This document shows, one piece after another, positions 35,080-57,465 of a stretch of 64,000 bases of DNA (positions are counted from its first letter, which is position 1; every line of letters begins with the position of its first letter). The stretch is from Candidatus Eiseniibacteriota bacterium. Lineage in GTDB: Bacteria; Eisenbacteria; RBG-16-71-46; CAZAMP01. The notes beneath the pieces are model-generated. The model was not told the origin of the DNA, did not search any database, and was given only the letters and a program-made list of their open reading frames with translations. The position numbers and the translations under genes were made by a program. The stretch spans positions 1,504,001 through 1,568,000 of the forward strand of contig OZ245046.1 of the NCBI GenBank assembly GCA_965224245.1, read 5' to 3'.

Positions 35080-35108
35080 TTGAAAGCCCGCCTGGCGCCC
35101 GGTATGCT
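35080..35108 (+). promoter_or_regulatory. sigma70-type promoter of the CsgG-barrel-kinase operon
   Basis: TTGAAA (35080-85), 17 nt, TATGCT (35103-08). Confidence 0.65.
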
Positions 35109-35198
35109 CCAGCCGCTCACGATCGGACGATCGGCCGAGCACCGTCGCTCCGTGGGGACGCGGCGGCTCGGGCGGGATGGCGTCGCTCACACGAGGAC

Positions 35199-36551
35199 AT
35201 GCCTCCGCCGGCATCCCAATCGCTCGGCCCGGCGCCCCGCGCGCCGGACGGGATCGAGGCGCAAGTGGCTCGTTTTCCTTGGCTGCTCGCTCTCGTGCTG
35301 GCCCTCGCGGGCTGCACGCCTGGCTATCTGGTCGACGGGGATGCCGCGATGGTGCGCGGCGACTACGGCGAGGCCGAGCGGGTGCTCCAGCGAGCCCTGA
35401 TCGTGCACCCCGACGACGCGCGCATCCTGAACCGGCTCGGCTGGGTCGCGCTGAAGGAGTCCCGGACCGACGCCGCGCTCGAGTATCTGACGCGGGCGCG
35501 TGAGCTGGATCCCACGAACGGCGAATCCATCCTCTACCTCGGCATGACCTACGAGGCGCGCGACGACGTGGACGCTGCGGTCGACACGTACCGGCACTAC
35601 GCGTCGCTGGGCGCGCTGTCTCGCGACAAGGGACGCATCCGCGATCGGCTGGAGGCGCTCTCGCGGCGACGGGCCGAGATCTGGGCCGTCGAGCGCCGAG
35701 CGGCCGAGGACAGTCTCGGGGCCGCGCCCACCGACGAGCGCTCGCTGGGCGTGGTCGCGATGTCCCTCTCGAGTGACGACGAGGACTACGCGGGTCTCGG
35801 CGCGGCGCTGGCCGGACAGCTCAGCACCGACCTGGCGAAGGTGCGTGCGCTGACGGTCGTCGAGCGTCTCCGACTCGATGCGATCCTGCGCGAGCTGGAG
35901 CTCGCCGCGTCGGGCGCGGTGGATTCGCGCACGGCCCCCCGCGTTGGACGGCTCCTCGGCGCGCGCACGATCGTGTCCGGCGACATCCTCCCGCTTCCCG
36001 ACGACGTGATCCGTGTCGACCTGGCCATCGTGGACACCGGCGCGGCCCGCGTGATGGCCCAGGTCGGTGACGAGGCGGCGGCCACGGACTTCTTCGAGCT
36101 GGAGTCGGCGCTCGCCTTCAGCATCCTGGACGTGATGGGCATCGAGATAAGCGAGCGCGAGCGGGAGGAGATCGCCCGCGCGCCGACGAGGTCCCTGGCC
36201 GCATTCCTCGCCTACGGGCGGGGCCTGGAGGCCGATCGCGCAGGGCGGCTCGCGGAGGCCGAGAGCGAATACCGGCAGGCTCTGGCCCTGGATCCCTCCT
36301 TCGCCGGCCCGAGCCAGGCGCTCGGCGACCTCGGAACGGGCGCCGTGCCCGTCAGCGATGCCATTGCCACGCTCACCCCGCCGTCCGCGGTGCCGGCAGG
36401 GGCACCCACGGTGGACGACCGGACGCTGGATCTTCTGGACGTGGTCGGTGACGGCACCTGGGGAGAGCGTCCCGACGACGGGCGCGTCGACCCGAATGCG
36501 TCCCAGGTCGAGATCCCGCGTCCGCCGACGCCACCGGAGGGGGGGAAGTAG
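35199..36551 (+). CDS. TPR + CsgG/HfaB-fold lipoprotein
   Basis: Lipobox LALAGC; TPRs (RLGWVAL, YLGMTYE); VVERLRLDAILRELEL...VDSRTAPRVGRLLGARTIVSG. Confidence 0.8.
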   Translation: MPPPASQSLGPAPRAPDGIEAQVARFPWLLALVLALAGCTPGYLVDGDAAMVRGDYGEAERVLQRALIVHPDDARILNRLGWVALKESRTDAALEYLTRARELDPTNGESILYLGMTYEARDDVDAAVDTYRHYASLGALSRDKGRIRDRLEALSRRRAEIWAVERRAAEDSLGAAPTDERSLGVVAMSLSSDDEDYAGLGAALAGQLSTDLAKVRALTVVERLRLDAILRELELAASGAVDSRTAPRVGRLLGARTIVSGDILPLPDDVIRVDLAIVDTGAARVMAQVGDEAAATDFFELESALAFSILDVMGIEISEREREEIARAPTRSLAAFLAYGRGLEADRAGRLAEAESEYRQALALDPSFAGPSQALGDLGTGAVPVSDAIATLTPPSAVPAGAPTVDDRTLDLLDVVGDGTWGERPDDGRVDPNASQVEIPRPPTPPEGGK

Positions 36552-37658
36552 ATGCGCGCGATCAGGGTCACCGGGCTCCGAGCCGCGGTCTCCGCCGTCG
36601 TGCTCGCCGCCCTTCCATCGCTCGCGGCAGCGGGCGGTCACGTGACGGTCGGCGCGGGCGTCGATCGCTGGTCCTGGGACGAGGACGACGTCACCGAGGT
36701 CGGGACCACCGCGACGCTGGGCCTGGAGCTCACGCCGACGGTCACGCTGGAGGCCGTCACCGGATTCTCGGACGTCTCCACCGACATCGGTCCCGGGATC
36801 TCGGGGCTCACCGACACCCAGCTTCGCATCACGGCCGTTCCCCGGCCGGGGGCGATGCTGCGGCTCGGCGTGAACGGTCCCACCGGACAGAGCGAGTTCG
36901 ACGGCGAGGATCTCAGCGCGATCCTGTACCTGACCGATCGCCTGATGAGCATGCCCACGCGCGCGATCGGGCGTGGCGTCGACGTCGACCTGTCGGCCGC
37001 GTACGCCGTCCAGCTCGGATCGGCGGCGCTCGGCGGCGGCATCGGCTACCTCGTCCGCGGAACGCTCACGCCGTTCGCGGACGGAGGCGAGTACGATCCC
37101 GGGGACCGGCTGTCGCTGGCGCTGGGCCTGGATCTCGGGTCGCACGCCTGGCTCGTGCGGCAGAACCTGCGCGTGGCGACCTTCACCGAGGACGTGTACG
37201 ACGATGAGCCCCTGGTCGAGTCCGGCACGCGCGTGGAGTATGCGCTGCGCGGGGTCCGTCGGGCCGTCGGACGCGACCTCTGGGCCGCGTTCCAGTACCG
37301 GGACTTCGGTGAGGCCGAGGCCCGCTCGGACAGCCTCGACGACGCGTCGTTCAATACGGGCAGCCAGGGCGACGTCAAGGTGTCGATCGGCGCCGACCTG
37401 ACGCTCTCGCCGCGCTGGCGGCTGAACCTCTCGACCGGGCTCCGTTTCCTGTCCGAGAACGCCCAGGGCTCCGAAGGCGGAAACCGGTTCGACATCGGTG
37501 CGGACGCGTCCACGCGGCTGCGGCCCGATCTCGTCGTCTCGTTCGGCGCCGGCATCGGATCGGCGTCGGTGGACGCGGCGTCGTCGACGCTGGGCGTCGC
37601 CGACGATGCGTCGTTGACCGGCCTACGGGCCTCGCTCCGCGTGCGCCGGGAGTTCTGA
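36552..37658 (+). CDS. outer-membrane beta-barrel protein
   Basis: Signal peptide, alternating strands, GLTDTQL...GVNGPTG, YDPGD, C-terminal LRASLRVRREF. Confidence 0.7.
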   Translation: MRAIRVTGLRAAVSAVVLAALPSLAAAGGHVTVGAGVDRWSWDEDDVTEVGTTATLGLELTPTVTLEAVTGFSDVSTDIGPGISGLTDTQLRITAVPRPGAMLRLGVNGPTGQSEFDGEDLSAILYLTDRLMSMPTRAIGRGVDVDLSAAYAVQLGSAALGGGIGYLVRGTLTPFADGGEYDPGDRLSLALGLDLGSHAWLVRQNLRVATFTEDVYDDEPLVESGTRVEYALRGVRRAVGRDLWAAFQYRDFGEAEARSDSLDDASFNTGSQGDVKVSIGADLTLSPRWRLNLSTGLRFLSENAQGSEGGNRFDIGADASTRLRPDLVVSFGAGIGSASVDAASSTLGVADDASLTGLRASLRVRREF

Positions 37659-37736
37659 TGCCGCCTGAGGACCGCGCTGGACGCCCACGCCGTGCGCGTC
37701 CGGCGCGCGGGGGCTCTCACGCGAGCGGGTGAGGCC

Positions 37737-39911
37737 ATGGACGAGCTGCCTCGCTACATCCGTCACGTCGGTGAGGTGCTGGCGTCCGCGCTCGCCGACA
37801 CGCACGAGAACGTGACGTATCTCGATCGCGGCGGCATGAGCGTGTTGTTCACCGCCGACCACAAGAAGCTCCGGCAGCGTCACGCGATCAAGGTGTTCAC
37901 CCACGACAGCACGGACGTCGACGACGCGTTCCGGCGCTTCGAGCGTGAAGCGGTCCAGATCGCCAAGCTGAATCACCCGCACATCCGGCGCATCCACGAC
38001 GCCCGCGATCTGCCGGATGCCCGGCTCTCGTTCATGGTCATGGATTTCGTCGACGGCGACAGCCTGTCGGTGCGGCTGAAGCGCGAGTCGATCTCGGTGG
38101 CCGACGGCATCGCGATCGCGTCCCAGGTCACCGGCGCGCTCGGGGCCGCGCACGACCAGGGCATCATCCACCGTGACATCAAGCCCGGGAACGTGCTCCT
38201 GGATCGGGACGGGAAGGCGTATCTGGCCGACTTCGGGATTGCCCGGGATTCGGCCGATCCGGCGCTCACCCAGGCCAACGCGGTTCCGGGAACCGAGCGC
38301 TTCATGGCGCCCGAGCTGTTCGACGGGGTGCCGGCCACCGCCCGCAGCGACCTGTACGCGCTGGGCTGCCTCCTGTACCGGATGTGGCTCGGCGAGGACC
38401 CCTACGCCCGGATCGGGCTGCGGCTGAAGGCCGAGATCGACGCCGGCGTCGTGCACGAGCCCGTGGCTCCCCGGTCGCGGCGGTCCGACCTGCCGCCTCG
38501 CGTGGCGGAGCTGATGGTCGGTCTGGTCGCGATCGACCCGAACCGGCGTCCCGGCGGCTGCCGGGAAGTGCTCCGCGTGCTCGAGGGGGCGCGCGAGTCC
38601 GAGCTGTCCGATCCGACGCTGATGGATGCCACCGAGCGGACCCTGTGGCGCGCGTCCTCCGGGGGCGACGTTCCGACCGGCGGCGCCAGCGGTGGGCCCG
38701 CCGTCGGCGACCGCACCGACCCGCGGACGACCGACACCCCGGCGCCTGCCGGATCGCACGAGGCGCCGGTCGACACGCGCACGGAACGGGCGCCGGCGGA
38801 TCGGACCCGGGCGAGGCCGCGCTGGATCGCGTGGACGGCGGCCGCCGCCGGCGTCCTCGCGTGCGTGATCGCGTTCTGGGTCTGGCGCACATCGACCGGC
38901 GAGACGCCACGGGGCCCCGGCCCGGGCAGCGCGGTGTCGCTGCAGGTCGTCTCCGAGCTGGAGCTGCCGCCGGAGGGTCCCGCGTCCCTTCGCGTGCGGG
39001 TCTCCGGAGGGGAGGGCCGGGAGCTCGCGCTCACGGCGTTCCCGGAGGGGGGCGTCGCGTGCGGGACACCCGCGGACGGGTCCGGGGTTCAGAACTCGGA
39101 CGGATCGATCGTACAGGTGATCGACGCGGGTGCGCCGCGTCCGGCCACCGTGGAGGTCGCCGTGTCGGCCGCCGACGGCGCGGCCGGTCCGAACGTCGGA
39201 TCGGTTCTCGTCGAGCTGCGCGACGACGGCCGGCTGGTCGGCAGCGAGCGCGTCTCGGTTCGAGCCGTGGCGCCGGCCGGCCCGGCGGTGGTCGGCGTCA
39301 CGATCGCCCGCGAGGGGGGGCGGGGCGGCGAGCGGGTCGGGGAGCCGGCGCGCGTCCGGGTGTCGGTCACGAACGACGGTGCGGCGCGCACCGGGGAGGT
39401 CGACGTTCATCTCTTCGTCGAGTCGGTTCGAGCCGACGTCGACGACGCCGCGCACACGCTGGATCCGATCGAGCCCGGTGACACGGCCGAGGTGGTCGCG
39501 ACGGTGACGCCGCGCGACGGCGGGCGGCTCAGCATCGGGGCGCGAGTCGGGGACGGCACCGAGGTGGCCGAGGTGATCCGCACGACGTCCTGGCAGGTGG
39601 CGGCGAGACCGACTCCGCCGGCGGGGCCGCGTACGGTCCGTGTCCGGTGCCGGGTCGAGGGGCTGGCGACCACCGACGACGGACGGCAGCCGGTGGTGTT
39701 CGCGAACGGGCGTGAGGTCGGCCGGGCGCCGCTCGTCTTCGAGTTCGAGGCCCGGGACGGCGACACGATCGAGGTCACGGCCACGAGGGCCGGGTACACG
39801 TACGAGAGGCAAGGAGATCTCATCACCGTTCGTCCGGAAACCGATGAGTATCGGGTGGTCTTCACGGCCAAGCCGGCGTGGAATCTGTCCGGGGGACGCG
39901 ACGGAGGCTAG
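37737..39911 (+). CDS. membrane Hanks-type Ser/Thr kinase (PpkA-like position) with extracytoplasmic Ig/CARDB-like and PEGA-like domains
   Basis: AIKVF, HRDIKPGN, DFG, MAPE, SDLYALG; TM WIAWTAAAAGVLACVIAFWVW; VSVTNDG...IEPGDT; VFANGREVGRAPL. Confidence 0.88.
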   Translation: MDELPRYIRHVGEVLASALADTHENVTYLDRGGMSVLFTADHKKLRQRHAIKVFTHDSTDVDDAFRRFEREAVQIAKLNHPHIRRIHDARDLPDARLSFMVMDFVDGDSLSVRLKRESISVADGIAIASQVTGALGAAHDQGIIHRDIKPGNVLLDRDGKAYLADFGIARDSADPALTQANAVPGTERFMAPELFDGVPATARSDLYALGCLLYRMWLGEDPYARIGLRLKAEIDAGVVHEPVAPRSRRSDLPPRVAELMVGLVAIDPNRRPGGCREVLRVLEGARESELSDPTLMDATERTLWRASSGGDVPTGGASGGPAVGDRTDPRTTDTPAPAGSHEAPVDTRTERAPADRTRARPRWIAWTAAAAGVLACVIAFWVWRTSTGETPRGPGPGSAVSLQVVSELELPPEGPASLRVRVSGGEGRELALTAFPEGGVACGTPADGSGVQNSDGSIVQVIDAGAPRPATVEVAVSAADGAAGPNVGSVLVELRDDGRLVGSERVSVRAVAPAGPAVVGVTIAREGGRGGERVGEPARVRVSVTNDGAARTGEVDVHLFVESVRADVDDAAHTLDPIEPGDTAEVVATVTPRDGGRLSIGARVGDGTEVAEVIRTTSWQVAARPTPPAGPRTVRVRCRVEGLATTDDGRQPVVFANGREVGRAPLVFEFEARDGDTIEVTATRAGYTYERQGDLITVRPETDEYRVVFTAKPAWNLSGGRDGG

Positions 39912-39913
39912 AC

Positions 39914-40921
39914 ATGAAACGCAGGATCGCAATGTTGACGATGGGCCTCGGGGTCGCGCTGGTCGTGACCTCGGGTACCTGGGCCGCGGAGTCGGTCGCG
40001 ACGCTCGATGATGCCCTGGCCGCCTACTACGACGCGGAGTTCGAGACGGCGACCGACGTGCTCGGGCGCTACCTCGACCGGGCCGACCTGGACTCAGAGT
40101 CGCGGGCCGAGGGGCTTCTGTATCTGGCGAAGGTTCAGTGGGCGCGCTCCTCGGAGTCGGGCGCGCGGGCCGCGCTGGAGGAGATTCGCGCGTTCATGCC
40201 CGACTATCGGCCCGAGATGCGCAAGGTGCTCGACATCAAGAACCTCTACTTCGACGTGTTCGGGGCCGCGCTGTCGCGTGAGCCCGGCATCCACACGATC
40301 GCGATCGTGGACTTCACGAACGACTCGTTCGGGAAGGACAAGGAAGAGCTCGAGGGCATGGGCCGCGGCATCGCGCACCTCCTGATCGCCGAGCTCGGAC
40401 ACGCGTTGAACGTGCGCGTCGTGGAGCGCGAACGGCTCGACTACCTGCTGAAGGAGCATGAGCTCAGCAAGTCCGATCTCGTGGACCCCGAGACGGCCGT
40501 CCAGGCCGGCAAGCTCCTCGGCGCGCAGTCGTTCCTGATGGGTGGCTACATGAAGATCGGCGATCGGATGCAGATGTATCCGCGACTCGTCGTGACCGAG
40601 ACCGGCGAGATCAAGCCGCTGAGCCGCGGTCGGATCGAGGGCGACTTCGACGACCTGGCCGAGCTGATCGACGACCTGGCCAGGGCGCTCGTGGAGGACG
40701 TCGGCGGCGTTCTGGAAGGGGAGACCGATCGTTCCGGCGCGCCGGGCATCGACGCGCTGAAGCGCTACGTCGACGGCCTGGAGCGGCTGGACCGCGGAGA
40801 CCTGGACGGAGCCGCGATGGCCTTCCAGGCGGCGCTCGACGCGCATCCGCAGTACGAGGAGGCGGAGGCCTACCTGATCGAGATCCAGCCCCTGGTCGCG
40901 ATGGCCGACACCGATCAGTAG
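39914..40921 (+). CDS. secreted TPR + CsgG/HfaB-fold protein
   Basis: Signal peptide; TIAIVDFTN, VVERERLDYLLKEHEL...VDPETAVQAGKLLGAQ; C-terminal TPR. Confidence 0.8.
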   Translation: MKRRIAMLTMGLGVALVVTSGTWAAESVATLDDALAAYYDAEFETATDVLGRYLDRADLDSESRAEGLLYLAKVQWARSSESGARAALEEIRAFMPDYRPEMRKVLDIKNLYFDVFGAALSREPGIHTIAIVDFTNDSFGKDKEELEGMGRGIAHLLIAELGHALNVRVVERERLDYLLKEHELSKSDLVDPETAVQAGKLLGAQSFLMGGYMKIGDRMQMYPRLVVTETGEIKPLSRGRIEGDFDDLAELIDDLARALVEDVGGVLEGETDRSGAPGIDALKRYVDGLERLDRGDLDGAAMAFQAALDAHPQYEEAEAYLIEIQPLVAMADTDQ

Positions 40922-40954
40922 GGACCTCGACCGGATCGGCCGCGGTGCGCCGCG

Positions 40955-41482
40955 TCAGGCGCCGGTGCGCCGCGGCTCGGGCGGGGGCGCGAACAACGCC
41001 ACGCCGAGCGTGGTCTCGCCGACCACGAAACGCTGTCGCTGGACGAGCGGCTCGTACGTCATCGGAGCCGGATCGGACGGCTTGCGGCGAACGCAGAGCG
41101 TGAGCCCCCGCGGTCGCACGGCCAGCTTGGCCAGGCAGTCGGTCAGGTCCTCGCGAACGGCCCGGATGCCACCGCGCGCATCGTCCACGAAGCTGAGCGG
41201 CGTGTCGCCGTCGCGGAGCTCGAGAATCTCGACCGGCTCCTGCGCATGGGGGTCGATGCCGTAGAGTCGACCCTTCACCGGCCACGCGACCCCGCGCAGA
41301 CACGCCGGTCCGTCGTAGGGGTCGAGCTCGGGCCAGATCACGGGGCACTGCGGACACTCGGTGGCCCCGATGGGCAGGACGTGTCCCTTGGCACAGACGC
41401 GGACGGGATCGATCGACTTGCCGCACACGGCGCACACCGTCGCCCGGAGATCGTTCTCGGCGTAGCACTGCCCGCACTTCAT
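40955..41482 (-). CDS. multi zinc-ribbon protein
   Basis: MKCGQC...CAVCG...CAKGH...CPQCP; ATGA-coupled to the upstream FHA gene. Confidence 0.7.
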   Translation of the reverse strand: MKCGQCYAENDLRATVCAVCGKSIDPVRVCAKGHVLPIGATECPQCPVIWPELDPYDGPACLRGVAWPVKGRLYGIDPHAQEPVEILELRDGDTPLSFVDDARGGIRAVREDLTDCLAKLAVRPRGLTLCVRRKPSDPAPMTYEPLVQRQRFVVGETTLGVALFAPPPEPRRTGA

Positions 41483-42138
41483 CGAGCGCTCCCCACCAGC
41501 TCGAGGGGCACGATCTGAATCGTCAGATGCGAGTGCGCGGCGAGATAGGCCGCGTCGTCGCCGGGGAACTCCGCGCGAAGGACGTCCCAGGACAGGTGCA
41601 CGCGCTCGTCCCCGTCGATCACGAGCTCTTCGACGCCCCCATGGGCCGGGCAGACCGACCGCTTCATGCTCTCCACGTAGAAGCCGTTCGCCGAGAAGCA
41701 GATCAGCTTCGCGCGCCCGGGCTCGACCATCTCGACCACGAGATGCGTACGTGAGACGGTCCCGAAGAGATCGGTTCGCTTTGGAAACACGTGCTGGTGC
41801 GTGATCGGGATGCTGCGCCCGTGGGCCTCGATGGACGCGCCCTGGGCGTGCCGGCCGAAGAACACGGCCTCGTGCCGGCGGAGCGGGTAGGCGCATCCCA
41901 GCATCGGGTCGACGACGCCCGGATCGGCGCGCTCGGAGTAGATGGCGACGACGCCGAGAACGGGGTCGTGCCAGGACGGGGCCTCCTCGTCGGCGCCGGG
42001 GCGCGGGACCAGCGTGATGGACGTCGTCTCGTCCACGTCGGCGTGTCGCGGCGGGACGTACTCCGCGTTGACCGCCCCGCACTCGGGGCAGTGATGGATG
42101 AGGGGCCCCAGCCCGCTCTTGCATGCCGAGCAGCTCAG
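41479..42138 (-). CDS. zinc-ribbon + FHA domain protein (start uncertain, CTG proposed)
   Basis: CSAC...CPECG; FHA motifs FFGR, VSRTH, SANG; GGAGG 7 nt upstream of CTG at 42138. Confidence 0.7.
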   Translation of the reverse strand: MSCSACKSGLGPLIHHCPECGAVNAEYVPPRHADVDETTSITLVPRPGADEEAPSWHDPVLGVVAIYSERADPGVVDPMLGCAYPLRRHEAVFFGRHAQGASIEAHGRSIPITHQHVFPKRTDLFGTVSRTHLVVEMVEPGRAKLICFSANGFYVESMKRSVCPAHGGVEELVIDGDERVHLSWDVLRAEFPGDDAAYLAAHSHLTIQIVPLELVGSAR

Positions 42139-42362
42139 CGTCCGACCTCCGGTTGTGGGATCCGGCTGACGAGTGTAGACCGCCGTTTCGGACGCACGCA
42201 ACGTCCGCGACGACCGCCCTCGGTCGCCTTGACGCGTTGGGGGAAACGTGATGCAATCGGTCGACCGGAATCCGCTCGTCTTGCTTCGTGCTACCTCCAG
42301 CGCGGCGAACGGGGTCGTCGGCGAACGACTCGGCGCCGACGTACGAGCCGTCAGGGGTGCCC

Positions 42363-44639
42363 ATGGCGTCGGAAGATGCCGATCGTGATCGCCCGTCGTC
42401 GCGACGGTTCGTGATCGGCGACAGTCGACATCACCCGTGCTTTCGACTCGTGGTCGGGCGGACGTCCGCCGACGATCTGACCGCGCCCTTCGTTCGCTAC
42501 GACGCCGGCAACCTGCCGTACGTGGCCTACCTCGCGACGCTGGAGCAGGACGGCGTGGCCATTGCCGATCCGGTGACGGTGCTGATCGAGACCAGCGAGT
42601 ACCCTCCCGCGGCGTCCGGTACGGCGGCCGGCAGCGCGACGAACGCCCACGCCGATCGCGTCTGGGAAGAGGCCGCCGCCCGATGGCGGAGCGATGCCGC
42701 CCAGGGGGTAGCGCGCCTGGTGCCTCAGTATCGCGAGCACGTGCCGCCCGAGGGTGATCTCGTGCGGCATCCGCCACTGGCGTACTGCCGGCGCACCGGC
42801 GAGTACGTCGAGCCCGTCTGTCCCACCTGCCTCGGGCCGCTGGCGACCTGTCGCGACGAGGGCCTCCTTAGGCGCTCGGGCCTGCCGTCCTACGCGGGAA
42901 CACTGTCCCGGTTCCTGACCTGCGCGACCTGCGCCGGGCGAGATCAGACCGTCTTCTACACGTTCGAGCTGCGCGGACCGGACGCTCAGGCGGCCTCGGC
43001 GACCGTGCGCCGTCGCTCGCAGCTCTATCGGGATCTGGGGCCTCAGATCAAGGGGGGCGCCGCCGCGGTTCCCGAGACGCATGCGTGCTTCCGGTGCGCC
43101 CATCGCCACGACTGCTATCCGTCCACCGAGACGACGCAGCCGTGTCCGGCCGAGCGCTACCTCGTACCGGTCTCCTACTACGACTTCCGTTTCCTGCCCG
43201 TCGAGACGCTCCCGCTGCATGCCGACGAGGTCTGTGCGCTCCTCGGCGGCGCCGCGGTCGCCGACGGTACCGAGACGGTCACGTCGCGCAGCCTCGGAGC
43301 CGGGGCCGCCGAGGCCGAGCGGGACGATCCGGCCCGGGCGGCCACCTTCGAGGGGCTCGAGGACGCCCGCAACGCCTTCTTCTTCGCCGGCGACGGCGGC
43401 ATGCTCTACGTGGGCGAGGTCCTGTACCTGAAGCTCCGCGCATTCCGCGACGTGGTGGACGGGGTGGCGGCGCTTCATCGTGCCGGGCAGCGCCCGCATC
43501 TGGCGCTGTCGATCGACCGGGTACGCGGCCTCCGGAAGGCCGCCGGCTCGCGTGTGCCGAGTCGATGGACGCTGGGGCTCCGGATCACCGACCTCCTGAC
43601 CACGGCCCCGTTGCCCGGTCGCGCCCCGGACGACCCGATCTGGGCCACGCCGCACCCAGCCCCGTACGCGGTGCTGCCCCGGGTGATGGCCGTGCCGCAG
43701 ACCCAGATCGTCCGCATGCGCCTGCGCGTCCGGTCGCTCGAGGTCGACGGTGGCACCCAGACGAACGTCCGTGCGCCGAGACGCGTGACCCTCGTCGGCG
43801 AGCTGACCTCCGAGGACTACCGCGACGGCGGACACGGGCGCCTCGACGCGGTGGATCTCGTGGTCCACGTGCCCGGAGGGCCGGACGCCGGGGCGGCGAT
43901 CTCCGGTCGCAAGATCGACGACGCGGCCGGTGGCTTCGTCTTCCGCGGGCGCTCCGGCGAGCTGGACGCGGAGACGGCCGAACGGGTCCGTCAGGCCATC
44001 CCGTCGTCGGCCTCGGTCGAGGTCACGATCCGGCACGCACATCAGGTGACGGCCGACGTCTTCAGCCTGGGATTCATGCTGCTCCGGTTCCTGTTCAACA
44101 ACGACGACGGCCCCGATCCGAGCTGGCTCGACCGTGCGACGCTGACCCGCGTGGCCGCCCAGCTGACGCGGCGTGCCGAGCAGGCCCGCGTGTCGCAGGC
44201 GCTCTCCAACGCCGAGCAGCTGGCCGCGGTGCTCGAGGAGGAGGGGATCGACGCCGACCCCCGCGTGCTCCTCTACCGGGCCGTGGATCGCGAACGGACC
44301 GATCGGGTGACCCTGCCGAAGGGGCTCTGGGAGGACGTCCTGATCCTGGCCATCCGGATGGCCACGCACGTTCCGGGCTGGAGCATCGTGGGGCATGCCG
44401 ACGACGTCGATCCGGACGATCTGGCCGCGCCGATCCAGCTGGTGAGCGATCACCTGGAGCGGCTGATCGATCGCGTGCGGAGCGCGATCCTGGGCTCGGG
44501 CGGACGCAACGGCATCGTGCTCGAGGTGCTCGAGGACTTCTACGCCGACTACGTCGACGCCGCGCAGTCCGGCACGCTGGGGGGATCGTTCGATTCCGAC
44601 GACCCCGAGGTGACAAAGGTGGGATGGAAGCGACAATGA
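42363..44639 (+). CDS. large Cys-rich hypothetical protein with degenerate kinase-like motifs
   Basis: C...CPTC...C...CATC and CFRC...C clusters; LHRAGQRPHLAL; ADVFSLGFMLLRFL; ATGA-coupled to the next gene. Confidence 0.7.
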   Translation: MASEDADRDRPSSRRFVIGDSRHHPCFRLVVGRTSADDLTAPFVRYDAGNLPYVAYLATLEQDGVAIADPVTVLIETSEYPPAASGTAAGSATNAHADRVWEEAAARWRSDAAQGVARLVPQYREHVPPEGDLVRHPPLAYCRRTGEYVEPVCPTCLGPLATCRDEGLLRRSGLPSYAGTLSRFLTCATCAGRDQTVFYTFELRGPDAQAASATVRRRSQLYRDLGPQIKGGAAAVPETHACFRCAHRHDCYPSTETTQPCPAERYLVPVSYYDFRFLPVETLPLHADEVCALLGGAAVADGTETVTSRSLGAGAAEAERDDPARAATFEGLEDARNAFFFAGDGGMLYVGEVLYLKLRAFRDVVDGVAALHRAGQRPHLALSIDRVRGLRKAAGSRVPSRWTLGLRITDLLTTAPLPGRAPDDPIWATPHPAPYAVLPRVMAVPQTQIVRMRLRVRSLEVDGGTQTNVRAPRRVTLVGELTSEDYRDGGHGRLDAVDLVVHVPGGPDAGAAISGRKIDDAAGGFVFRGRSGELDAETAERVRQAIPSSASVEVTIRHAHQVTADVFSLGFMLLRFLFNNDDGPDPSWLDRATLTRVAAQLTRRAEQARVSQALSNAEQLAAVLEEEGIDADPRVLLYRAVDRERTDRVTLPKGLWEDVLILAIRMATHVPGWSIVGHADDVDPDDLAAPIQLVSDHLERLIDRVRSAILGSGGRNGIVLEVLEDFYADYVDAAQSGTLGGSFDSDDPEVTKVGWKRQ

Positions 44640-45496
44640 CCGACCGTCCGGCAAACCCGTTCGCGGTCTCGCCCGACGGCGTGGCCACCGAGATCCGGGA
44701 GATTCTCTCTCGCGAGGACTTTCCGAGTGACGACGCACTTCGCGCGGCGGTGCGGCGGGCCGTGCACCGCGCGGCGGTCGGACTGGACGAGGCGGCGCTG
44801 TCGAAGCTCCTGGACTCGCTACGCTCGCGCTTCCCCGACCGTAACTTCGAGACCCGCACGCGCGTCGCGCAGCTCGAGCAGAGCGAGCGCACGCTCCAGC
44901 GAGAGGTGGCGGAGCTGCGCGAAGGCCGCAACCGGCTGGCCGGTCGGCAGCAGGCGCAGGCCGCGGTGCTGCACGACCTCGTCCGCACCGCGGTCGCCGA
45001 CGGCCGCGGCGTGGCCGACATCGCCGGGCAGCCCGAGCGTCTCGGGCCGCTGGTCGGCGTGTTCGCGCGCCTCCTGGCGTTCGCCGCCGAGCAGGAGGTC
45101 GTCCTCTCCCAGATCGAGGCCTCGTTCGCCGGGGCCAAGGGCGGCGAGGGCGAGCACGAGCTGGCCGAGCTGGTCGACCGGGTGGCCCGCGGCGACGACG
45201 ACGGAACTGCGAGCGCCGAGCTCGAACGGCGCCTCGGGCGGCTGGGACGCCTGCCCAAGGCGCTTCTCGTGGGAATGCAGCAGTCGTGGACCAGCGGCAC
45301 GCTCGCGCTCCTGCGACAGCTCAGCCCCGACGACATCGACGTGGGCGGGGTCGGGCCGCTGAAGGCCAGCAAGACGCTGGCCGAGGTGGAGCGCCGATTC
45401 TCCGCCGTTCGGCGTGACATCGAGAAGAATGTGTCGCATTACTACCGCGGCAGCTTCGAGCAGATCTACACGAAGAAGATGGAGGAGGCACCCTGA
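44636..45496 (+). CDS. coiled-coil protein resembling the TagH/Fha C-terminal domain, without an FHA domain
   Basis: ALLVGMQ...ALLRQLSPDDI...YYRGSFEQIY resembles the Fha/TagH C-terminal pattern; lies just upstream of tssJKLM. Confidence 0.5.
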   Translation: MTDRPANPFAVSPDGVATEIREILSREDFPSDDALRAAVRRAVHRAAVGLDEAALSKLLDSLRSRFPDRNFETRTRVAQLEQSERTLQREVAELREGRNRLAGRQQAQAAVLHDLVRTAVADGRGVADIAGQPERLGPLVGVFARLLAFAAEQEVVLSQIEASFAGAKGGEGEHELAELVDRVARGDDDGTASAELERRLGRLGRLPKALLVGMQQSWTSGTLALLRQLSPDDIDVGGVGPLKASKTLAEVERRFSAVRRDIEKNVSHYYRGSFEQIYTKKMEEAP

Positions 45497-45498
45497 TC

Positions 45499-45960
45499 AT
45501 GCTCCGGGACGACCGCGTACGCGCGCACCGCCGGCTTCGCACGGCGGCGCTCACGTTCCTCTTGGCGTCGGCCGCCATCGGCTGCGCCGGGCCGCACTAC
45601 GTGAGCCTGACGATGGAGCCGCCGGCCTCGTCACCGGTCTGGGTGGGTGCGTTCCTGATCGAGGACAAGGCACTCCTGGACGACTACGAGACGTCGGATC
45701 TCATCGACCAGAAGGACGAGATCGCCATCAAGAAGGGCGTCCTCAATCACTCGGTGTTTCCGATCTACCCCGATCGGCCCGCGGAGGAACGCCGGTTCGC
45801 CCTGGACGACGTCGTGACCGAGACGGCGTGGCTGCTCGTCTTCGCGAGCGGGCCCGGCGGATCCTGCGCGCGCGAGAAGCGTCAGATCCACGAGTCGGAC
45901 CGGCTGGACCTCCGGGTGTCCATCGTCGACGACTGCCTCAGTGTCGTGATCGTCCAGTGA
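45499..45960 (+). CDS. lipoprotein, probable divergent TssJ
   Basis: Lipobox AAIGC, 153 aa, beta-rich (WLLVFA), immediately upstream of tssK. Confidence 0.55.
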   Translation: MLRDDRVRAHRRLRTAALTFLLASAAIGCAGPHYVSLTMEPPASSPVWVGAFLIEDKALLDDYETSDLIDQKDEIAIKKGVLNHSVFPIYPDRPAEERRFALDDVVTETAWLLVFASGPGGSCAREKRQIHESDRLDLRVSIVDDCLSVVIVQ

Positions 45961-46026: not shown

Positions 46027-47406
46027 ATGCATGAGTGTCATCGGGTGGTGTGGAGCGAAGGGCTCCTGTTGAGTCCACACCACTTCCAGCAGTCCGACCT
46101 GTATCACGAGGCGCAGCTCGCCGAGCGGATGGCCCTCGCGCACCCGTACGGCTGGGGCATCCGCGAGCTCGACATCGACTCTGACGCGCTTCGCCGCGGC
46201 GAGTTCCGGGTGCTCGCATGCCGCGGGATCCTGCCCGGCGGCACCGTGGTCCGGATTCCCGAGTTCGACCCGCCGCCCCCGATCGTCAGCTTCCAGGACA
46301 CGTTCGACGTCCGTGACGAGACGCTCGACTTCTTTCTCGGAGTGCCGTCCCGGCGGACGGGATGGCCCAATCATGTGCGCCGTGGCGACGCGGGGGAGGG
46401 CACCGGCGAGGCCCGGTTCACGATCGCCGAGGTCACCGTGGCCGACGAGACCAGCGGCCGGAACGATCGTTCCATCGAGCGCGCCCAGCAGAACTTCAAG
46501 GTGCTGTTGCCACAGGACCAGCGCGAGCACTACGAGCACATCCCGCTGGCCCGGGTCACCCAGCAGGCCACCGGCGACTTCCGGCTGGTCGAGGAGTTCG
46601 TGCCGCCGGCGATCGCGCTCCAAGCCTCTCCGTATCTCGTGCGCGTCACGCGGGGGCTCCTGGAGCGGCTGAGTGCGCTCTCGACCAAGTTCGGCTCCCG
46701 CTTCGGGGACGGCGGGATCGACGCGCGCGACATCACGCCGGCCAACCTCCGGTTCTTTCTCCACTTCGCGGCCGTGAACACGGCGATCCCGGCGCTCGCG
46801 CATCTCCGGGAGCACCCCAGCGCGCACCCCGAGGTGGCGTACCGCGCGCTCTCGGCGCTGGCCGGGCAGCTGACGGCGTTCAAGGCCAGCCGCTTCCATC
46901 CCCGCGACGTCCCGCTGTACCGGCACGACGCGCTGGGGAAGACCTTCGCCGACCTCGAGCGGATCCTCATCGAGCTGCTCGACATCCGCGACGAGGACCA
47001 GGGCTACGGCGTGCTCCAGCTCGACTCGGACGGGCACGGGCGCTACGCGGTCGTCGTGGACGACCGCTACCTGAGCGGGTCCGCGGCCCTGATCCTGTCG
47101 GTGGCCAGCGAGGGGCTCAGCGAGGATCAGATCCAGGACGTCGTGCGGCGGGGGCGCTTGATCGTGGCCTCGGCCGACGCGATCGACGCGAAGATCGCGC
47201 GCAACATCCCGGGCCTGCCCCTGGCCCACCTGAGTCGGCCGCCGTCGGTCATCCCGCCGCGCGGCGGCACCCTCTACTTCGAGCTGGACCGTCGCGATCG
47301 CGAATGGGAGGCCATCTCGGCCACGAAGAAGATCGCCGTGCAGATCCCGGCCGAGCTGCGTGACGGCTCGACGATCGAGCTGCTGGGCGTGGAGGCACGC
47401 CGATGA
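46027..47406 (+). CDS. tssK: T6SS baseplate subunit TssK
   Basis: RVVWSEGLLLSPHHFQQSD, YGWG, GILPGG, HPE, YRHD, YFELD. Confidence 0.95.
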   Translation: MHECHRVVWSEGLLLSPHHFQQSDLYHEAQLAERMALAHPYGWGIRELDIDSDALRRGEFRVLACRGILPGGTVVRIPEFDPPPPIVSFQDTFDVRDETLDFFLGVPSRRTGWPNHVRRGDAGEGTGEARFTIAEVTVADETSGRNDRSIERAQQNFKVLLPQDQREHYEHIPLARVTQQATGDFRLVEEFVPPAIALQASPYLVRVTRGLLERLSALSTKFGSRFGDGGIDARDITPANLRFFLHFAAVNTAIPALAHLREHPSAHPEVAYRALSALAGQLTAFKASRFHPRDVPLYRHDALGKTFADLERILIELLDIRDEDQGYGVLQLDSDGHGRYAVVVDDRYLSGSAALILSVASEGLSEDQIQDVVRRGRLIVASADAIDAKIARNIPGLPLAHLSRPPSVIPPRGGTLYFELDRRDREWEAISATKKIAVQIPAELRDGSTIELLGVEARR

Positions 47407-48071
47407 CGACCGCGTCGCATGCGACGTCGGCCGCATCCGACGCCGGCGCGGCGGGAGCGCTCGTGGCGGCGTCGGGTCCCTTGCTCTCGCTGATCATCGT
47501 GCTCCGCCGCGCGAAGGACCTGGACGCATTCGGTGACATCCGGGGGACGGTGGCGCGCCTCGTCGAGGATCTCCGGACGAGGGCGCGCATGGAGCGGATG
47601 AACCCGCGCGACGTCGACGACGTGATCTACGCCCTGGCGGCCACGATCGACGAGACGCTCCTGATGGCCGACTGGTCCGGTCGTAGTCCCTGGGCGCAGG
47701 AGCCCCTGGCGCGACGCTACTGCAACGACGAGTTCGTCGGCGTGGGGTTCTTCGACAAGCTCGAAGCCCTGCGTCTGGACTTCGCCGCGCGACGCGACGT
47801 GGTCGAGGTGTTCTACTACTGCCTCGTCGCCGGCTTCCGGGGCCGAATGGCCGAGGATCCGGCTGCGTTCGATCGGCTGATGAGCGCCCTCTCGGCCGAT
47901 CTGCAGCCGGGTTCCCGGGAGCTCTCTCCGGATCTCGGCGCGGCGCGCGGGGGGCGGCTGCGCGCGACGGTCAACCGCTTCCCGTTCATCTGGATCTTCG
48001 TCGTGCTCGGCGCGACCGTCTTCATCTTCTACCTGGTTGCGTCACTCTACCTGGCGAGCGTCGCGACGTGA
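47403..48071 (+). CDS. tssL: T6SS DotU/TssL
   Basis: YALAATIDE, W...PL, GVGFFDKL, EVFYYCLVAGFRG; C-terminal TM, no OmpA domain. Confidence 0.92.
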   Translation: MTTASHATSAASDAGAAGALVAASGPLLSLIIVLRRAKDLDAFGDIRGTVARLVEDLRTRARMERMNPRDVDDVIYALAATIDETLLMADWSGRSPWAQEPLARRYCNDEFVGVGFFDKLEALRLDFAARRDVVEVFYYCLVAGFRGRMAEDPAAFDRLMSALSADLQPGSRELSPDLGAARGGRLRATVNRFPFIWIFVVLGATVFIFYLVASLYLASVAT

Positions 48072-48143
48072 GCACGTTGGGAGCCGGCGAGGTCCGGCAC
48101 ATGGGGTCGGTGACGCCCTCGGTGTCACCCGAGGAGAGCTGAC

Positions 48144-51100
48144 GTGGCCATGCTGTTGCCGATGTTGCTGCCGATCGGGCTGCCGGTCGCGTTGCTGATA
48201 CTCGTTCTGTTCCTGGCCCGGGCGAAGTTCGCGTTCCTGGCCGCGCTCCCGCTGTGGGTGTTTCTGGGGATCGTGGCGCTTCTCCTCGTCGTGGCGGCTC
48301 TGATCATCGTCATCCGCATCCGCAAGCAGAAGGCGGACGCCGCCGCGCTCGAGGCGGGGATCCTCGACGCGAAGGGTGGAGAGGGCGTCTCCCAGGCCGA
48401 CCTGGACCAGATGCAGGAGAAGCTCCGCGACGCGGTGGCGCGCCTGAAGGCCGGCCCCGAGGGGGCCAAGGCGCTGTACTCGATCCCGTGGTACCTGGTC
48501 ATGGGGCCGCCGGCCATCGGAAAGACGACGCTGATCCGGAACTCGGGTCTCGACTTCCCGAACCTCACCACCGCCGAGAAGATGCGCGGCACCGGCGGCA
48601 CGCGCGACTGCGACTGGTGGTTCAGCTCCGATGCGATCCTGCTGGATACCGCGGGACGGTACGCGCAGAGCCGAGAACGCACGGACTCCGAGGAGTGGAA
48701 CGCGTTCCTGGACCTTCTGAAGAAGCACCGCCGGCAGGGCCCCATCAACGGTCTCATCCTGGGCTACAGCATCGAGACCCTGATCGACAAGGACGACAGC
48801 CACCTCGTGGACTCGGCGCGCGAGCTGCGCCAGCTCCTGGACGACGTGCTGGAGCGCCTGGGCTGGACCTTCCCCACGTACGTGCTGTTCACGAAGTGCG
48901 ACCTGATCGCGGGGTTCGTCGAGTTCTTCTCGTCGCTCTCACCGCTCGAGCGCCAGGCCGCCTGGGGCTTTCCCGTGGAGGTCGCCGAGGGACCCGAGCA
49001 GCACGCGGCGGAACGCTTCTCCGAGCGCTTCCGGCGTCTCGTCGAGCGGACGCGTGCGCTCCGGGCCGGCCGCATCCGGCCCAGCGCCGGCGTGGACGAC
49101 TGGTCGCGTGCGATCACGTTCCCCGAAGCGTTCGAGAGCCTCGAGCGCAAGCTGCACCTGTTCATCGAGACGCTGTTCGCACCCAACCCGTACAAGCGGG
49201 ACTATCCGCTGCTCCGTGGCGTGTACTTCTCGAGCGGCTGTCAGGACGGGGCGCCGTTCGACCTCGTGGTCAAGGAGATCGAGCGGGTGCTCGGCGGCGC
49301 CTCTCACGATCGAGGCGACGCGCTGGTGCCGACCGAGGATGCGTACTTCGTCCAGGAGCTCTTCTCCAAGGTGCTCGCGACCGACCGGCAGCTCGTCCAG
49401 CGCACCCACCGGGAGGGGAAGCGCCGGTTCCGGATGCGCGCGATCCTCAGCGCCTGCATGGGCGTGGTGACGGTGCTGTCGTGCCTGTGGTTCGCCACCT
49501 CGTGCACGCTGGTCAAGAACAAGATCGATGCGTCCCAGGGGCTGGAGGAGAAGCTACAGCGCGACGACGGCTCGAACATGGTCTACACGTTGAATCTCCT
49601 CGATCAGCTGTATGGAGAGGTGTCCGGCTCGTTCCGGGTCCTCCCGTTCGTCGTGGCCAGGGCCCCGCGTGAGGACCTCCGAGAGGCCTACCGGCGCGCG
49701 TCCCGCGAGAAGGTGCTCGGTCCCCTCGAGAAGGAGCTGCTCGAGAAGGGCCGGGACGCGTCGCTTCCCGCGTTCGAGGTGCGCGATCTCCTGACCACCG
49801 AGGTGCTGCTCCTGTCGCCCGAGAATCAATCGGCCGTCCCGGACACCGCGCGCTTCCAGCGTACGCTGCGAGAGCTCGCCCGGTTCGACGGCGACACGCC
49901 GGTCCGCACCGTCGACCAGCTGCGCGAGGTGGGGAGGCGGTTCCTGGAGAGCGGCGAGCCGCTGCGGCCGACGACGGAGGACGATCGCCAGCAGATGCGG
50001 CGGTGGGCGCGAAGGCTCAACGCCAGCCACCATCCCGAGGCCATCGTGGCCGCCATCGTGGCCGAGGCGGCCGACGCTCTGGACGATCTCGAGCTGTCCG
50101 ATCTCCTGGGCTCCACCGACGACGACCTTCTCCGCGGCAGCCGGGAGATTCCGGCGGCGTACGCGCGCGACGGCTGGGAGCGCGTGGTGTATCCCCGACT
50201 CTCGTCGCTCGACGACTGGATCGAGGGCGATCGCACCCTCATTCGACTGGTCGGCGAGACGCCACGCGACGACCCCACGCTCCGCGAAGACGTCGTGACC
50301 TACTACGCCGAGGAGCTGGCCGACGCGTGGAGCGACTTCCTCCGGTCCGTCTCCCTGCGCACCGGAAGCAGCTGTGACGAGGCGTCGTCGGCCTATCGCA
50401 CGCTCAAGAGCGGCACCCGCTCGCCGCTTCTGGCTCTTCTGAAGAACGCGGCCGCCCAGGTGAGCTTCGAAGGGGGACCGGCCGATGCGATCGGGGTGGG
50501 CTCGGGGCTCCTGGTGCCCATCCGGCGACAGACCGCCCCGTTGACGGACATGGTCGCCGAGCCCGAGGACGGCGCCGCGCCGATCGAGATGTACGAGGAG
50601 ATCCTGGGGGACCTCTACCACGAGGTCGGCGAGTGCGCCGACGAGCCCGGACGCGACCCCGAGGGGCTGGAGGACATCGAGGACTTCGCATCGGACTATC
50701 GTGACGACCACGCGGGCTCCGACATCTCGAGGTCTCTGGAGCTGCTGCTGCAGGCGCCGGGCGAGGACGTGAAGACGCTCCACGCCTCGGCGAAGATCGG
50801 CGAGACGATCGGTCGCTGGCAGCGGGGTGTAGTTGACGAGTGGAGGACGGTCGCGTCCAGCTACCCGTTCGATGGCCGCTCGTCGTCCGGCGCGGACGTG
50901 AAGGCCGTTTGTGACGTTCTCCGGCGTGACGGCGCCATCGATGCGTTCGTGGAGACGCTCGGCGAGCGGGGCCGACAGCCGGGCGCGGCGCTCGAGCGTG
51001 CGCGAACCCGACTGACGCAGGTGCGGCGTGGCATCGAGATCGGCGACGGGACACTCGAGACGAGCTTCCGGATCACGTTCCGGTCCAGCTCGGACTGGAT

Positions 51101-51500
51101 CTCGGCGTCGACACCCGAGGGGGAGGAGAACAGACGGAGGATCGACACCGTTCGCTTCTTCGTAAACGGCGACGAGAAGGTCGTCCGCGGCAACACCGAC
51201 GAGCACGTGTTCACGTGGTCGAGCGGCGACGACGATCTCACGTGCGGGATCGAGCTGGTGTACGGCGGTCGCACCATCGGCGAGCTGCGCCGATCGGGGC
51301 CCTGGGGCGCCTTCCAGCTGTTCGATGCGGCCCGGATGACGCCGACCGGTGCCTCCGGCACGTATCGCGTCACGTGGTCGTTCCCCGACGCGGGCGTGAC
51401 GCTCGAGGTGCTCCTGCGCACGGAGAGCGGGGAGCCGTCGCCGTTCGCCCGGGACTCCGCGTTCCGCGGCTTCGCTCTCCCCGACTCTCCGATCGAGTAG
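48144..51500 (+). CDS. tssM: T6SS membrane complex TssM/IcmF
   Basis: LYSIPWYLVMGPPAIGKTT, GTRDCDWWF, LDTAGRY, PINGLI, TKCDLIAGFVEFF, GPWGAFQLFD. Confidence 0.95.
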   Translation: MAMLLPMLLPIGLPVALLILVLFLARAKFAFLAALPLWVFLGIVALLLVVAALIIVIRIRKQKADAAALEAGILDAKGGEGVSQADLDQMQEKLRDAVARLKAGPEGAKALYSIPWYLVMGPPAIGKTTLIRNSGLDFPNLTTAEKMRGTGGTRDCDWWFSSDAILLDTAGRYAQSRERTDSEEWNAFLDLLKKHRRQGPINGLILGYSIETLIDKDDSHLVDSARELRQLLDDVLERLGWTFPTYVLFTKCDLIAGFVEFFSSLSPLERQAAWGFPVEVAEGPEQHAAERFSERFRRLVERTRALRAGRIRPSAGVDDWSRAITFPEAFESLERKLHLFIETLFAPNPYKRDYPLLRGVYFSSGCQDGAPFDLVVKEIERVLGGASHDRGDALVPTEDAYFVQELFSKVLATDRQLVQRTHREGKRRFRMRAILSACMGVVTVLSCLWFATSCTLVKNKIDASQGLEEKLQRDDGSNMVYTLNLLDQLYGEVSGSFRVLPFVVARAPREDLREAYRRASREKVLGPLEKELLEKGRDASLPAFEVRDLLTTEVLLLSPENQSAVPDTARFQRTLRELARFDGDTPVRTVDQLREVGRRFLESGEPLRPTTEDDRQQMRRWARRLNASHHPEAIVAAIVAEAADALDDLELSDLLGSTDDDLLRGSREIPAAYARDGWERVVYPRLSSLDDWIEGDRTLIRLVGETPRDDPTLREDVVTYYAEELADAWSDFLRSVSLRTGSSCDEASSAYRTLKSGTRSPLLALLKNAAAQVSFEGGPADAIGVGSGLLVPIRRQTAPLTDMVAEPEDGAAPIEMYEEILGDLYHEVGECADEPGRDPEGLEDIEDFASDYRDDHAGSDISRSLELLLQAPGEDVKTLHASAKIGETIGRWQRGVVDEWRTVASSYPFDGRSSSGADVKAVCDVLRRDGAIDAFVETLGERGRQPGAALERARTRLTQVRRGIEIGDGTLETSFRITFRSSSDWISASTPEGEENRRRIDTVRFFVNGDEKVVRGNTDEHVFTWSSGDDDLTCGIELVYGGRTIGELRRSGPWGAFQLFDAARMTPTGASGTYRVTWSFPDAGVTLEVLLRTESGEPSPFARDSAFRGFALPDSPIE

Positions 51501-51509
51501 CGAGGCGTC

Positions 51510-52394: not shown

Positions 52395-52426
52395 TCGGCT
52401 CGGTGGCCCGGTGAGCGCGTTTGCGC

Positions 52427-55760: not shown

Positions 55761-55771
55761 TCTCGCCATCG

Positions 55772-57449: not shown

Positions 57450-57465
57450 GGAGCCGAGGTCCAGT

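Follow-up and report, generated by a model that had tools for sequence, protein, structure and literature searches.

Is an operon that joins outer-membrane proteins to a transmembrane (TM) Ser/Thr kinase, and that lies beside the accessory genes of a type VI secretion system (T6SS), a trigger of that system or merely its neighbour? The question is posed by a 64,000-nucleotide stretch from a Candidatus Eiseniibacteriota bacterium, henceforth the window (G000:C1:1504001-1568000; 70% G+C), in a genome (G000) of 6.9 Mb on 27 contigs with a single tssK. To our knowledge, post-translational triggering of T6SSs is understood only in a few Proteobacteria, through TagQRST-PpkA-Fha1 and RtkS; the candidate additions described here come from an uncultured phylum. 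The genes in question, lettered C to K, are arranged thus: C, D, E and F form one operon on the + strand; this converges on G and H on the - strand, with 34 bp between the stops of F and G; G and H in turn diverge from I, J, K (tssJ) and tssKLM-tagF onward, again on the + strand (Table 1).

Genes were called by GC3 frame analysis together with a listing of open reading frames (ORFs), and families were assigned by Pfam and NCBIfam scans. Our firmest result is that G-K appear to be T6SS-specific accessory genes, of which H, I, J and G together look like a split and expanded TagH. The further coupling of C-F to this T6SS, the wiring that an earlier note on this DNA had proposed, is partly supported: that C-F act as an envelope-to-kinase trigger on the split TagH is a tentative reading, to which we give a probability of about 45%.

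The TagH-related genes G to J

The protein I is Cys-rich, has no Pfam or NCBIfam match, and belongs to a large unnamed family, with relatives in 1042 representative clusters of public data (E<=1e-3), or in 302 at E<=1e-30. The family includes Planctomycetota proteins of about 1100 aa whose sole annotation is 'FHA domain-containing protein', and these tie it physically to TagH: in P0031 and P0045 the I-like region, an FHA domain and the TagH C-terminal domain (T6SS_FHA_C, here TagH-C) lie on one chain, and in P0054 the I-like region is joined to an FHA domain. Because of these fusions we read H, I and J as a split, expanded TagH: fused in some phyla and divided here. No polypeptide of the locus combines FHA and TagH-C, H and J being separate genes on opposite strands; the fused FHA/TagH-C forms are found only in distant relatives, and there the I-like region stands in front of them.

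The features of I suggest a kinase-like protein that lacks the catalytic Asp. All seven PDB hits of a 52-row profile are protein kinases (E 0.12-0.97), and in the alignments the segments 'PHLaLsPenv...LiDlG' and 'CDlysLG' of I face 'HtDiKPENv...LiDFG' and 'CDiWSfG' of the kinases, that is, the HRD-loop/DFG region and the DxWSxG motif. Sub-threshold Pkinase matches occur on two of the nine scanned members of the family, and Atlas features of I likewise point to kinases. The catalytic loop reads RPHLALS, and the catalytic Asp is replaced across the family consensus; the Asp of the DFG-like motif (D435) is invariant in five Eisenbacterial rows, and an ALK motif is visible only in the consensus of the wider family. 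The AlphaFold2 (AF2) model of I has a pLDDT of 86 and a pTM of 0.87. Read from an alternative start at 42363, I has the 758 aa of the form on record; the form of J on record is of 286 aa.

J is probably a free-standing TagH C-terminal domain. A profile of its family aligns (hhalign 97.9%, E 5.8e-13) with small proteins (~190-260 aa) of other Eisenbacteria that match PF20232 (T6SS_FHA_C); their genes immediately precede tssK, in G007 with tssJ in between. The J orthologue of G039 matches PF20232 directly (E 1.2e-3). Against single fused proteins, a six-row J alignment gave hhalign E-values of 0.03 and 0.26; the ten close relatives that a homologue search with J returned have neither Pfam domains nor informative names.

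For H, a profile built with four relatives has FHA domains as all 11 of its PDB hits (best E 0.009), and the motifs GR...SRxH...NG are visible, with an insert between GR and SRxH; hence, H is predicted to be a Zn-ribbon FHA protein, its TTG start being uncertain. G has only Zn-ribbon Pfam matches, a LIM-like double Zn-finger match (E 8e-4) and a C-terminal domain of unknown fold; an Atlas hint to double-Zn-ribbon (DZR)/FHA proteins serves only as a lead. It is conserved next to H, with which it overlaps by 4 nt. No TM segment is predicted for G, H, I or J. K has a lipobox, and though it is without a match in the Pfam scan, its 7-row profile finds TssJ in 5/5 PDB hits (PA0080, E 5e-6). The earlier note had seen here a Zn-ribbon/FHA pair, a Cys-rich kinase-like gene and a coiled-coil gene resembling TagH-C. 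The last two calls are borne out, by the profile and motifs of I and by the alignments of the J family; that of the pair holds for H, G being a Zn-ribbon protein without FHA motifs.

A strong tssK match is present in 53 of the 206 genomes of the class and I in seven; in the six of these in which the two share a contig, I lies directly upstream of tssK, and in G049 they are on separate contigs. The block H,G / I,J,K,tssKLM,tagF is kept in G014, G027, G020 and an Eisenbacteria metagenome-assembled genome (MAG), L018. In G039, I, J, K, tssKLM and tagF are present, and the 3.8 kb upstream of I yielded neither G nor H. Further afield, in an Acidobacteriota MAG (L019), a 27%-identical I precedes tssK by about 2.7 kb on the same strand, with tssM beyond. 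A Ser/Thr kinase is encoded in all six I-type loci examined (G000, G027, G020, L018, G014 and G039); in three T6SS loci without I (G006, G007, G050) a PEGA protein without a kinase domain occupies the place of the kinase. Two I homologues look like broken genes or assembly errors: that of G045 (G045:C14:50731-52957) is in two pieces with an in-frame TGA, and that of L018 (10001-12029) appears as two overlapping tblastn segments in different frames.

The main text of a 2026 review of T6SS accessory factors (PMC13584744) does not mention CsgG, pseudokinases, PEGA, TPR or zinc. Literature searches combining pseudokinase, type VI secretion and FHA found nothing on a T6SS pseudokinase among the papers listed; those on the PEGA domain with type VI secretion, on CsgG-like proteins with threonine kinase, and on type VI secretion with Planctomycetota and TagH listed nothing related, and Eisenbacteria with type VI secretion gave passing mentions only.

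The envelope-to-kinase operon C to F

C has a lipobox (LALAGC), a TPR_2 match (1.4e-17) and a CsgG match (PF03783) of 38.2 bits, as compared to a cut-off of 20.8. F is a secreted paralogue of C: it has a CsgG match of 42.9 bits with a weak TPR match, and a signal peptide without a lipobox Cys; its gene overlaps that of E by 34 nt. In both proteins the PF03783 match is partial, covering profile positions 37-98 (C) and 8-97 (F) of 210; therefore, both are best understood as CsgG/PelC/LpoB-like alpha/beta cores and not as CsgG channels. Neither C nor F shows a full-length CsgG match with the membrane-spanning hairpins. A full-length CsgG (PF03783 3.8e-33, positions 9-199 of 210) is encoded at L026:7460-8269 (-), just downstream of a relative of the C-F operon in G027 (G027:C8).

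D is predicted to be an outer-membrane beta-barrel, as judged from its signal peptide, its C-terminal Phe (...RREF) and a closed barrel of about 16 long strands in the AF2 model (pLDDT 72.9). A weak Pfam match to OMP_b-brl (1e-4) lies below the cut-off. Foldseek with the model against the PDB gave 466 hits at E<=1e-3; all 50 of those listed are outer-membrane proteins, and the listed ones with TMq >0.5 and root-mean-square deviation (rmsd) <8 are BcsC, PelB, PgaA and OmpG. According to an extract of PMC13631591, the CsgG-, PelC-, LptE- and PqiC-like lipoproteins share one common alpha/beta core, and a PelC ring docks on the porin PelB. Hence, it is possible that C forms a comparable ring-on-barrel complex with D.

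E has the features of a Hanks-type kinase such as PpkA/TagE, namely a kinase domain predicted to be active (Pkinase 6.6e-40; HRD, DFG and APE motifs intact) and a single TM segment (378-396). Its periplasmic part has a weak CARDB match, suggestive of Ig/CARDB-like domains; E itself has no PEGA match in Pfam, and its PEGA-like end is our reading of the sequence. Two other kinases of this genome are informative with respect to F: in L063 a kinase domain (13-259) is followed by a TM segment (296-314), an F-like CsgG-like domain (331-521) and TPRs (568-797), and L064 is organized alike. F-like domains thus form the extracytoplasmic part of other kinases, which supports F as a sensor subunit of E, and on account of these fusions our preferred reading of C-F is that of a kinase input module. 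The two receptor kinases lie at L063:2-2683 (-) and L064:3-3311 (-), and a homologue search suggests many more F-like receptor kinases of ~800-1100 aa across the class.

The operon is led by a sigma-70-like promoter match, a consensus match alone; two such sites occur in the region, as compared to 0.3 expected from shuffled sequence. The earlier account of a promoter-led four-gene operon beside tssJKLM-tagF, encoding CsgG-like/TPR proteins, an outer-membrane barrel and a TM Ser/Thr kinase, agrees with Pfam, the motifs and the AF2/Foldseek results; of the periplasmic Ig/PEGA-like domains that it gave to E, the weak CARDB match backs the first part. Metagenome scans with F and with an alignment of its closest homologues found no relatives. 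A search of public sequencing runs listed four DNA holders from one study, with no RNA holder among them.

Coupling of the operon to type VI secretion

Homologues of D are present in 49 of the 206 genomes of the class. D and tssK lie on one contig in 14 genomes from six families, always 6.5-40 kb apart (G000, G027, G020, G045, G007, G071, G070, G034, G046, G044, G038, G006, G050 and G106); in a seventh family D adjoins tssABC (G014), and in five further mapped loci F, F', C and D flank T6SS genes. The partner encoded with these T6SS-flanking modules is a kinase in G027, G020, G014, G106 and L018 and the kinase-less PEGA protein in G006, G007 and G050. In trees of C, D and F the family splits in two: the T6SS-flanking copies form one branch (type B) and the window's proteins fall in the other (type A), which consists of complete C-D-E-F operons with a kinase in 7/7. 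Excluded before tree building were a truncated D of G038, one wrong-frame duplicate ORF and all ORFs with a best hit <60 bits; the D of G027:C19 fell under the last rule and was later restored. We take these modules, in which a CsgG-like/TPR protein and a barrel are combined with either a kinase or a PEGA protein, as one family, a branch of which conservedly flanks T6SS loci. In the T6SS loci of families f6, f13 and f7 the PEGA-protein gene precedes the F homologue (L051:13845-15218, L056:3793-5181, L045:3403-5658), and the N-terminal ~280 aa of these proteins have no kinase match or known domain. Next to one C-D pair lies a giant ORF (L028:9064-16803, -; ~2000-2600 aa) in which a domain known from the T6SS-linked kinase of G027 (its residues ~463-630) is repeated many times in tandem.

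The reading that we tentatively favour, with C-F as a self-contained envelope-to-kinase input module (35199-40921), would work as follows: the state of the periplasmic and outer-membrane partners would set the activity of E; once activated through C, D and F, E would phosphorylate I, H, J or some component of the T6SS; the phospho-threonine would be read by H; and I with J would scaffold the signal onto the baseplate and membrane complex, with TagF as the brake. The type A module would here take the place that type B holds at the T6SS loci of related genomes. In favour of this coupling, G000 carries just one gene of the D family and yielded no type B copy, and its one module abuts the T6SS, ending 34 bp from G; the kinase present in all six I-type loci examined points the same way. 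Were I indeed a docking site for the kinase, it would provide a testable model for how kinase signals are localized to a T6SS. A more elaborate version is doubtful: in it a PelBC-like outer-membrane ring-barrel and the periplasmic CsgG-like/TPR protein would report envelope contact or damage to a PEGA-domain kinase that docks on the Zn-binding pseudokinase; pseudokinase, FHA and TagH-C would nucleate the baseplate; type A would have replaced type B here; and the relay would be common to Eisenbacterial T6SSs and, given the size of the I family, to many of those of Planctomycetota and Acidobacteriota.

A number of results weigh against the coupling or the split TagH on which it would act. The placement of C, D and F in branch A is well supported (91/88, 100/99 and 99/94), and none of the six other type A operons examined (G027:C19, G027:C8, G020:C50, G053, G064 and G033) has a T6SS gene in the fetched stretches, which extend ~0.5-10 kb past the operon: ~7-10 kb for the first three, and ~0.5 kb for G053, whose contig C105 ends there. 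Three of the genomes with such operons (G053, G064, G033) have no TssK match at 100, 95 and 99% completeness, as is also the case for 23 of the 49 genomes with a D-family gene; conversely, 27 tssK-positive genomes lack D, 26 of them from family f9. C-F converges on G/H and is thus not co-transcribed with any T6SS gene; C begins 184 bp downstream of an exopolysaccharide (EPS) cluster on the same strand. The genome has 99 Pkinase matches, or about one in every 70 kb, so that chance alone would be expected to place a kinase near the locus, and a second one ~8 kb beyond vgrG (G000:C1:1579471-1580247) flanks the T6SS too. The distant I locus of the Acidobacteriota MAG has no kinase within the fetched flanks. 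PP2C is absent from the Pfam matches of the scanned window proteins, most ORFs at 1-13 kb lying outside the scan. As for the split TagH, H does not reach Pfam FHA at E<=0.1, the window's own J has no Pfam match, PF20232 included, and Foldseek of the whole 783-aa model of I against the PDB returned no kinase (best TM 0.06-0.09, mostly gyrase), the matches being meaningless, so that no fold is assigned to I from structure.

These results bear most directly on a rival explanation that is quite possible: C-F would be an autonomous envelope-sensing kinase module lying next to the T6SS by accident of genome arrangement, and the split TagH would be served by another of the genome's many kinases or would act without phosphorylation, as TagH does where tagE is missing. 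That C-F belongs to type A, that six of the seven type A operons have no T6SS gene nearby, three of them in genomes without TssK, that kinases abound in this genome and that C-F is transcribed towards G/H and not with them all fit such a picture, as does the observation that some species keep tagH without tagE and tagG (extract of PMC13584744). No FHA partner was found beside the type A operons of G027. What speaks for coupling in spite of this is that the only such module of G000 abuts its T6SS, for which a rough estimate puts chance at ~1% for a single copy in 6.9 Mb, and that the sister branch, a conserved T6SS flank, is absent from G000. The earlier note had suggested a search for CsgG-barrel-kinase modules beside T6SSs in other genomes, and had named homologous operons mostly without T6SS linkage among what would speak against its proposal: in this class such linkage is seen for type B and, in the other operons examined, is missing for type A. 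The adverse outcome thus applies to the closest homologues and not to the wider family. Likewise, its view of the CsgG-like proteins and barrel as an outer-membrane sensor feeding the kinase is in keeping with the fusions of F-like domains to kinases and is weakened, as far as the T6SS is concerned, by the closest relatives of the module being without one. The locus is hence a warning against inferring function from adjacency alone, as the window's branch of the module works without a T6SS elsewhere.

It is unlikely that C and D, with F, instead constitute an outer-membrane export gate of the PelBC/AlgKE/BcsC kind for the polysaccharide of the Wzx/Wzy cluster upstream (13.3-35.0 kb), with E regulating export. 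In favour of such a gate, C lies on the same strand as the last glycosyltransferase of that cluster, 184 bp after it, and the cluster's own Poly_export protein is short (290 aa); by TM-score and rmsd, the D model fits best to porins for polysaccharides, namely BcsC, PelB and PgaA (TMq 0.51-0.54, rmsd 5.5-7.7), and the CsgG/PelC/LptE/PqiC-like core with PelC docking on PelB offers a precedent (extract of PMC13631591). However, the likeness of the barrel is generic, 14-18-strand porins scoring alike, and a promoter-like site separates C from the EPS genes. When the surroundings of the six other type A operons were searched by tblastn (1e-5), the genes for EPS synthesis and export in the window (glycosyltransferases, Wzx, Wzy, Wza, Wzc) had no homologue there, the sole matches being to the C-terminal part of the FlgD_ig protein near two of the six; the type B copies flank T6SS loci, not EPS loci.

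Finally, it is quite unlikely that the CsgG-like/TPR proteins and barrel serve not as a sensor but as a structural element, for instance an anchor or spike passage, by which the membrane complex of Eisenbacterial T6SSs would extend to the outer membrane: F, F', C and D of type B do flank T6SS loci in several families, and the kinase-less PEGA partner of G006, G007 and G050 implies that phosphorylation signalling is not needed for the association, but the window's type A operon occurs in genomes without a T6SS, 26 of the 27 TssK-positive genomes of family f9 have no D-family gene, and a kinase accompanies each of the seven type A operons.

Known pathways and gene neighbourhood

The locus resembles the H1-T6SS pathway of Pseudomonas aeruginosa (TagQRST-PpkA/TagE-Fha1/TagH-PppA/TagG) in the presence, next to the T6SS, of a membrane Hanks kinase that has a periplasmic domain, and of an FHA protein, a TagH-C domain and TagF in the cluster. 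It differs in several respects: the periplasmic part of the kinase is Ig/CARDB-like with, by our reading, a PEGA-like end; TagH is split into separate FHA and TagH-C proteins, to which the kinase-like I and a Zn-finger protein are added; and the input proteins are CsgG-like/TPR proteins and a barrel. PpkA carries a periplasmic vWA domain; no vWA family is among the Pfam matches of E, and the combination of a periplasmic vWA domain with a cognate PP2C (PppA/TagG) in the cluster, characteristic of PpkA/TagE, is not seen here. In NCBIfam/Pfam scans of C-K no homologue of TagQ, TagR or TagS/T was found, the only trace being TssQ_fam on F (E 0.07), and within 35-64 kb there are no ABC-type genes. 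The earlier statement that tagQRST and pppA are missing from the locus therefore stands, for PP2C among the scanned window proteins; the three PP2C_2 matches of the genome are >700 kb away. In an extract of PMC13584744, tagG is part of the minimal threonine phosphorylation set, and the input to the H1-T6SS kinase is, as with our candidate, an outer-membrane lipoprotein with a periplasmic partner.

In the PpkA-TssL-Fha pathway of Agrobacterium tumefaciens, a kinase, an FHA protein and TagF are likewise found in one T6SS cluster (extracts of PMC3953482 and PMC13584744), and phospho-TssL may, by analogy, be a target of the FHA protein here too (extract of PMC3953482); the FHA protein of the window has a Zn ribbon and, in contrast, no TagH-C domain. 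Serratia RtkS offers a case of a periplasmic activator other than TagQR acting on a T6SS kinase (extract of PMC13584744); in the window there are three envelope proteins including a barrel, with no evidence of homology to RtkS. With the PelB-PelC, AlgK-AlgE and BcsC gates the module shares TPR elements, a CsgG/PelC-like lipoprotein core and a ~16-strand barrel, and it differs from them in being operonic with a Ser/Thr kinase, in having no synthase genes nearby and in that C-D homologues flank T6SS loci or stand alone. The receptor kinases of L063 and L064 have the same F-like domain behind the one TM segment of a Hanks kinase, whereas the window encodes the presumed sensor apart from the kinase, as the secreted F, together with a lipoprotein paralogue and a barrel. 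A pseudokinase and an FHA protein also come together in type VIIb secretion, in YukC/EssB and the FHA-bearing EssC (extracts of 10.1101/2020.05.09.085852 and PMC9436818): machine and phyla are unrelated, and the parallel is one of analogy only.

Table 1. Features of the window from the promoter match to clpV, with positions counted from the first nucleotide of the window.
Feature	Position	Strand	Basis or context
Sigma-70-like promoter match, TTGAAA-17-TATGCT	35080..35108	+	184-bp gap between EPS cluster and C
C, predicted outer-membrane lipoprotein with TPR, CsgG/PelC-like alpha/beta domain and further TPR, 450 aa	35199..36551	+	Pfam, lipobox
D, predicted outer-membrane beta-barrel, ~16 strands, 368 aa	36552..37658	+	AF2 model, Foldseek
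E, predicted Hanks-type Ser/Thr kinase, 739 aa	37692..39911	+	Pkinase, motifs, TM
F, predicted secreted non-lipoprotein CsgG-like + TPR protein, 347 aa	39878..40921	+	Pfam, signal peptide
G, predicted cytoplasmic double Zn-finger protein, 175 aa	40955..41482	-	Zn-ribbon matches
H, predicted Zn-ribbon + FHA domain protein, ~240 aa, start uncertain	41479..42201	-	PDB profile, motifs
I, Cys-rich (Zn-binding) putative kinase-like protein without catalytic Asp, 783 aa	42288..44639	+	Profile, motifs
J, coiled-coil + putative free-standing TagH C-terminal (T6SS_FHA_C-like) domain, 290 aa	44624..45496	+	hhalign
K, TssJ lipoprotein, 153 aa	45499..45960	+	PDB profile, lipobox
tssK, tssL, tssM, tagF	46027..52394	+	Pfam/NCBIfam
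tssA, tssB, tssC, second tssC, tagJ (ImpE), tssE, tssF, tssG, clpV	52421..63999	+	Pfam/NCBIfam; clpV cut by window end

The T6SS cluster continues just past the window with hcp and vgrG, named from their translations and from tblastn matches beside the T6SS genes of relatives, with no family search. TagF matches TIGR03373 (63 bits, cut-off 41.2) and PF09867 (TagF_N; 1.3e-16), and the best Pfam/NCBIfam stretches of this 294-aa protein (51510-52394) span only about its first 136 residues. The two tssC paralogues are adjacent (54273-55760 and 55923-57449), each with VipB and VipB_2. In G027 the edge of the T6SS locus encodes a TssB-TssC-like fusion (VipA + VipB, 532 aa; L010:3030-4628); the loci of G007 and G050 have, in the same relative place, tandem ORF pairs resembling the fused TssB-TssC protein and TssC. 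In G106 (L048-L050, ~28.8-34.0 kb) tssF and clpV appear as several tblastn segments in different frames, which suggests frameshifts or assembly errors.

On the other side of the operon, positions 13336-35015 of the window hold the large Wzx/Wzy-type EPS cluster: besides Poly_export, it includes an AsnB-like amidotransferase, a Bac_transf sugar transferase, a Wzc-like protein, two Wzy_C proteins, GT4 and GT2 glycosyltransferases and MurJ/Wzx. An IS110-family transposase (23676-24740, -) is inserted among its genes.

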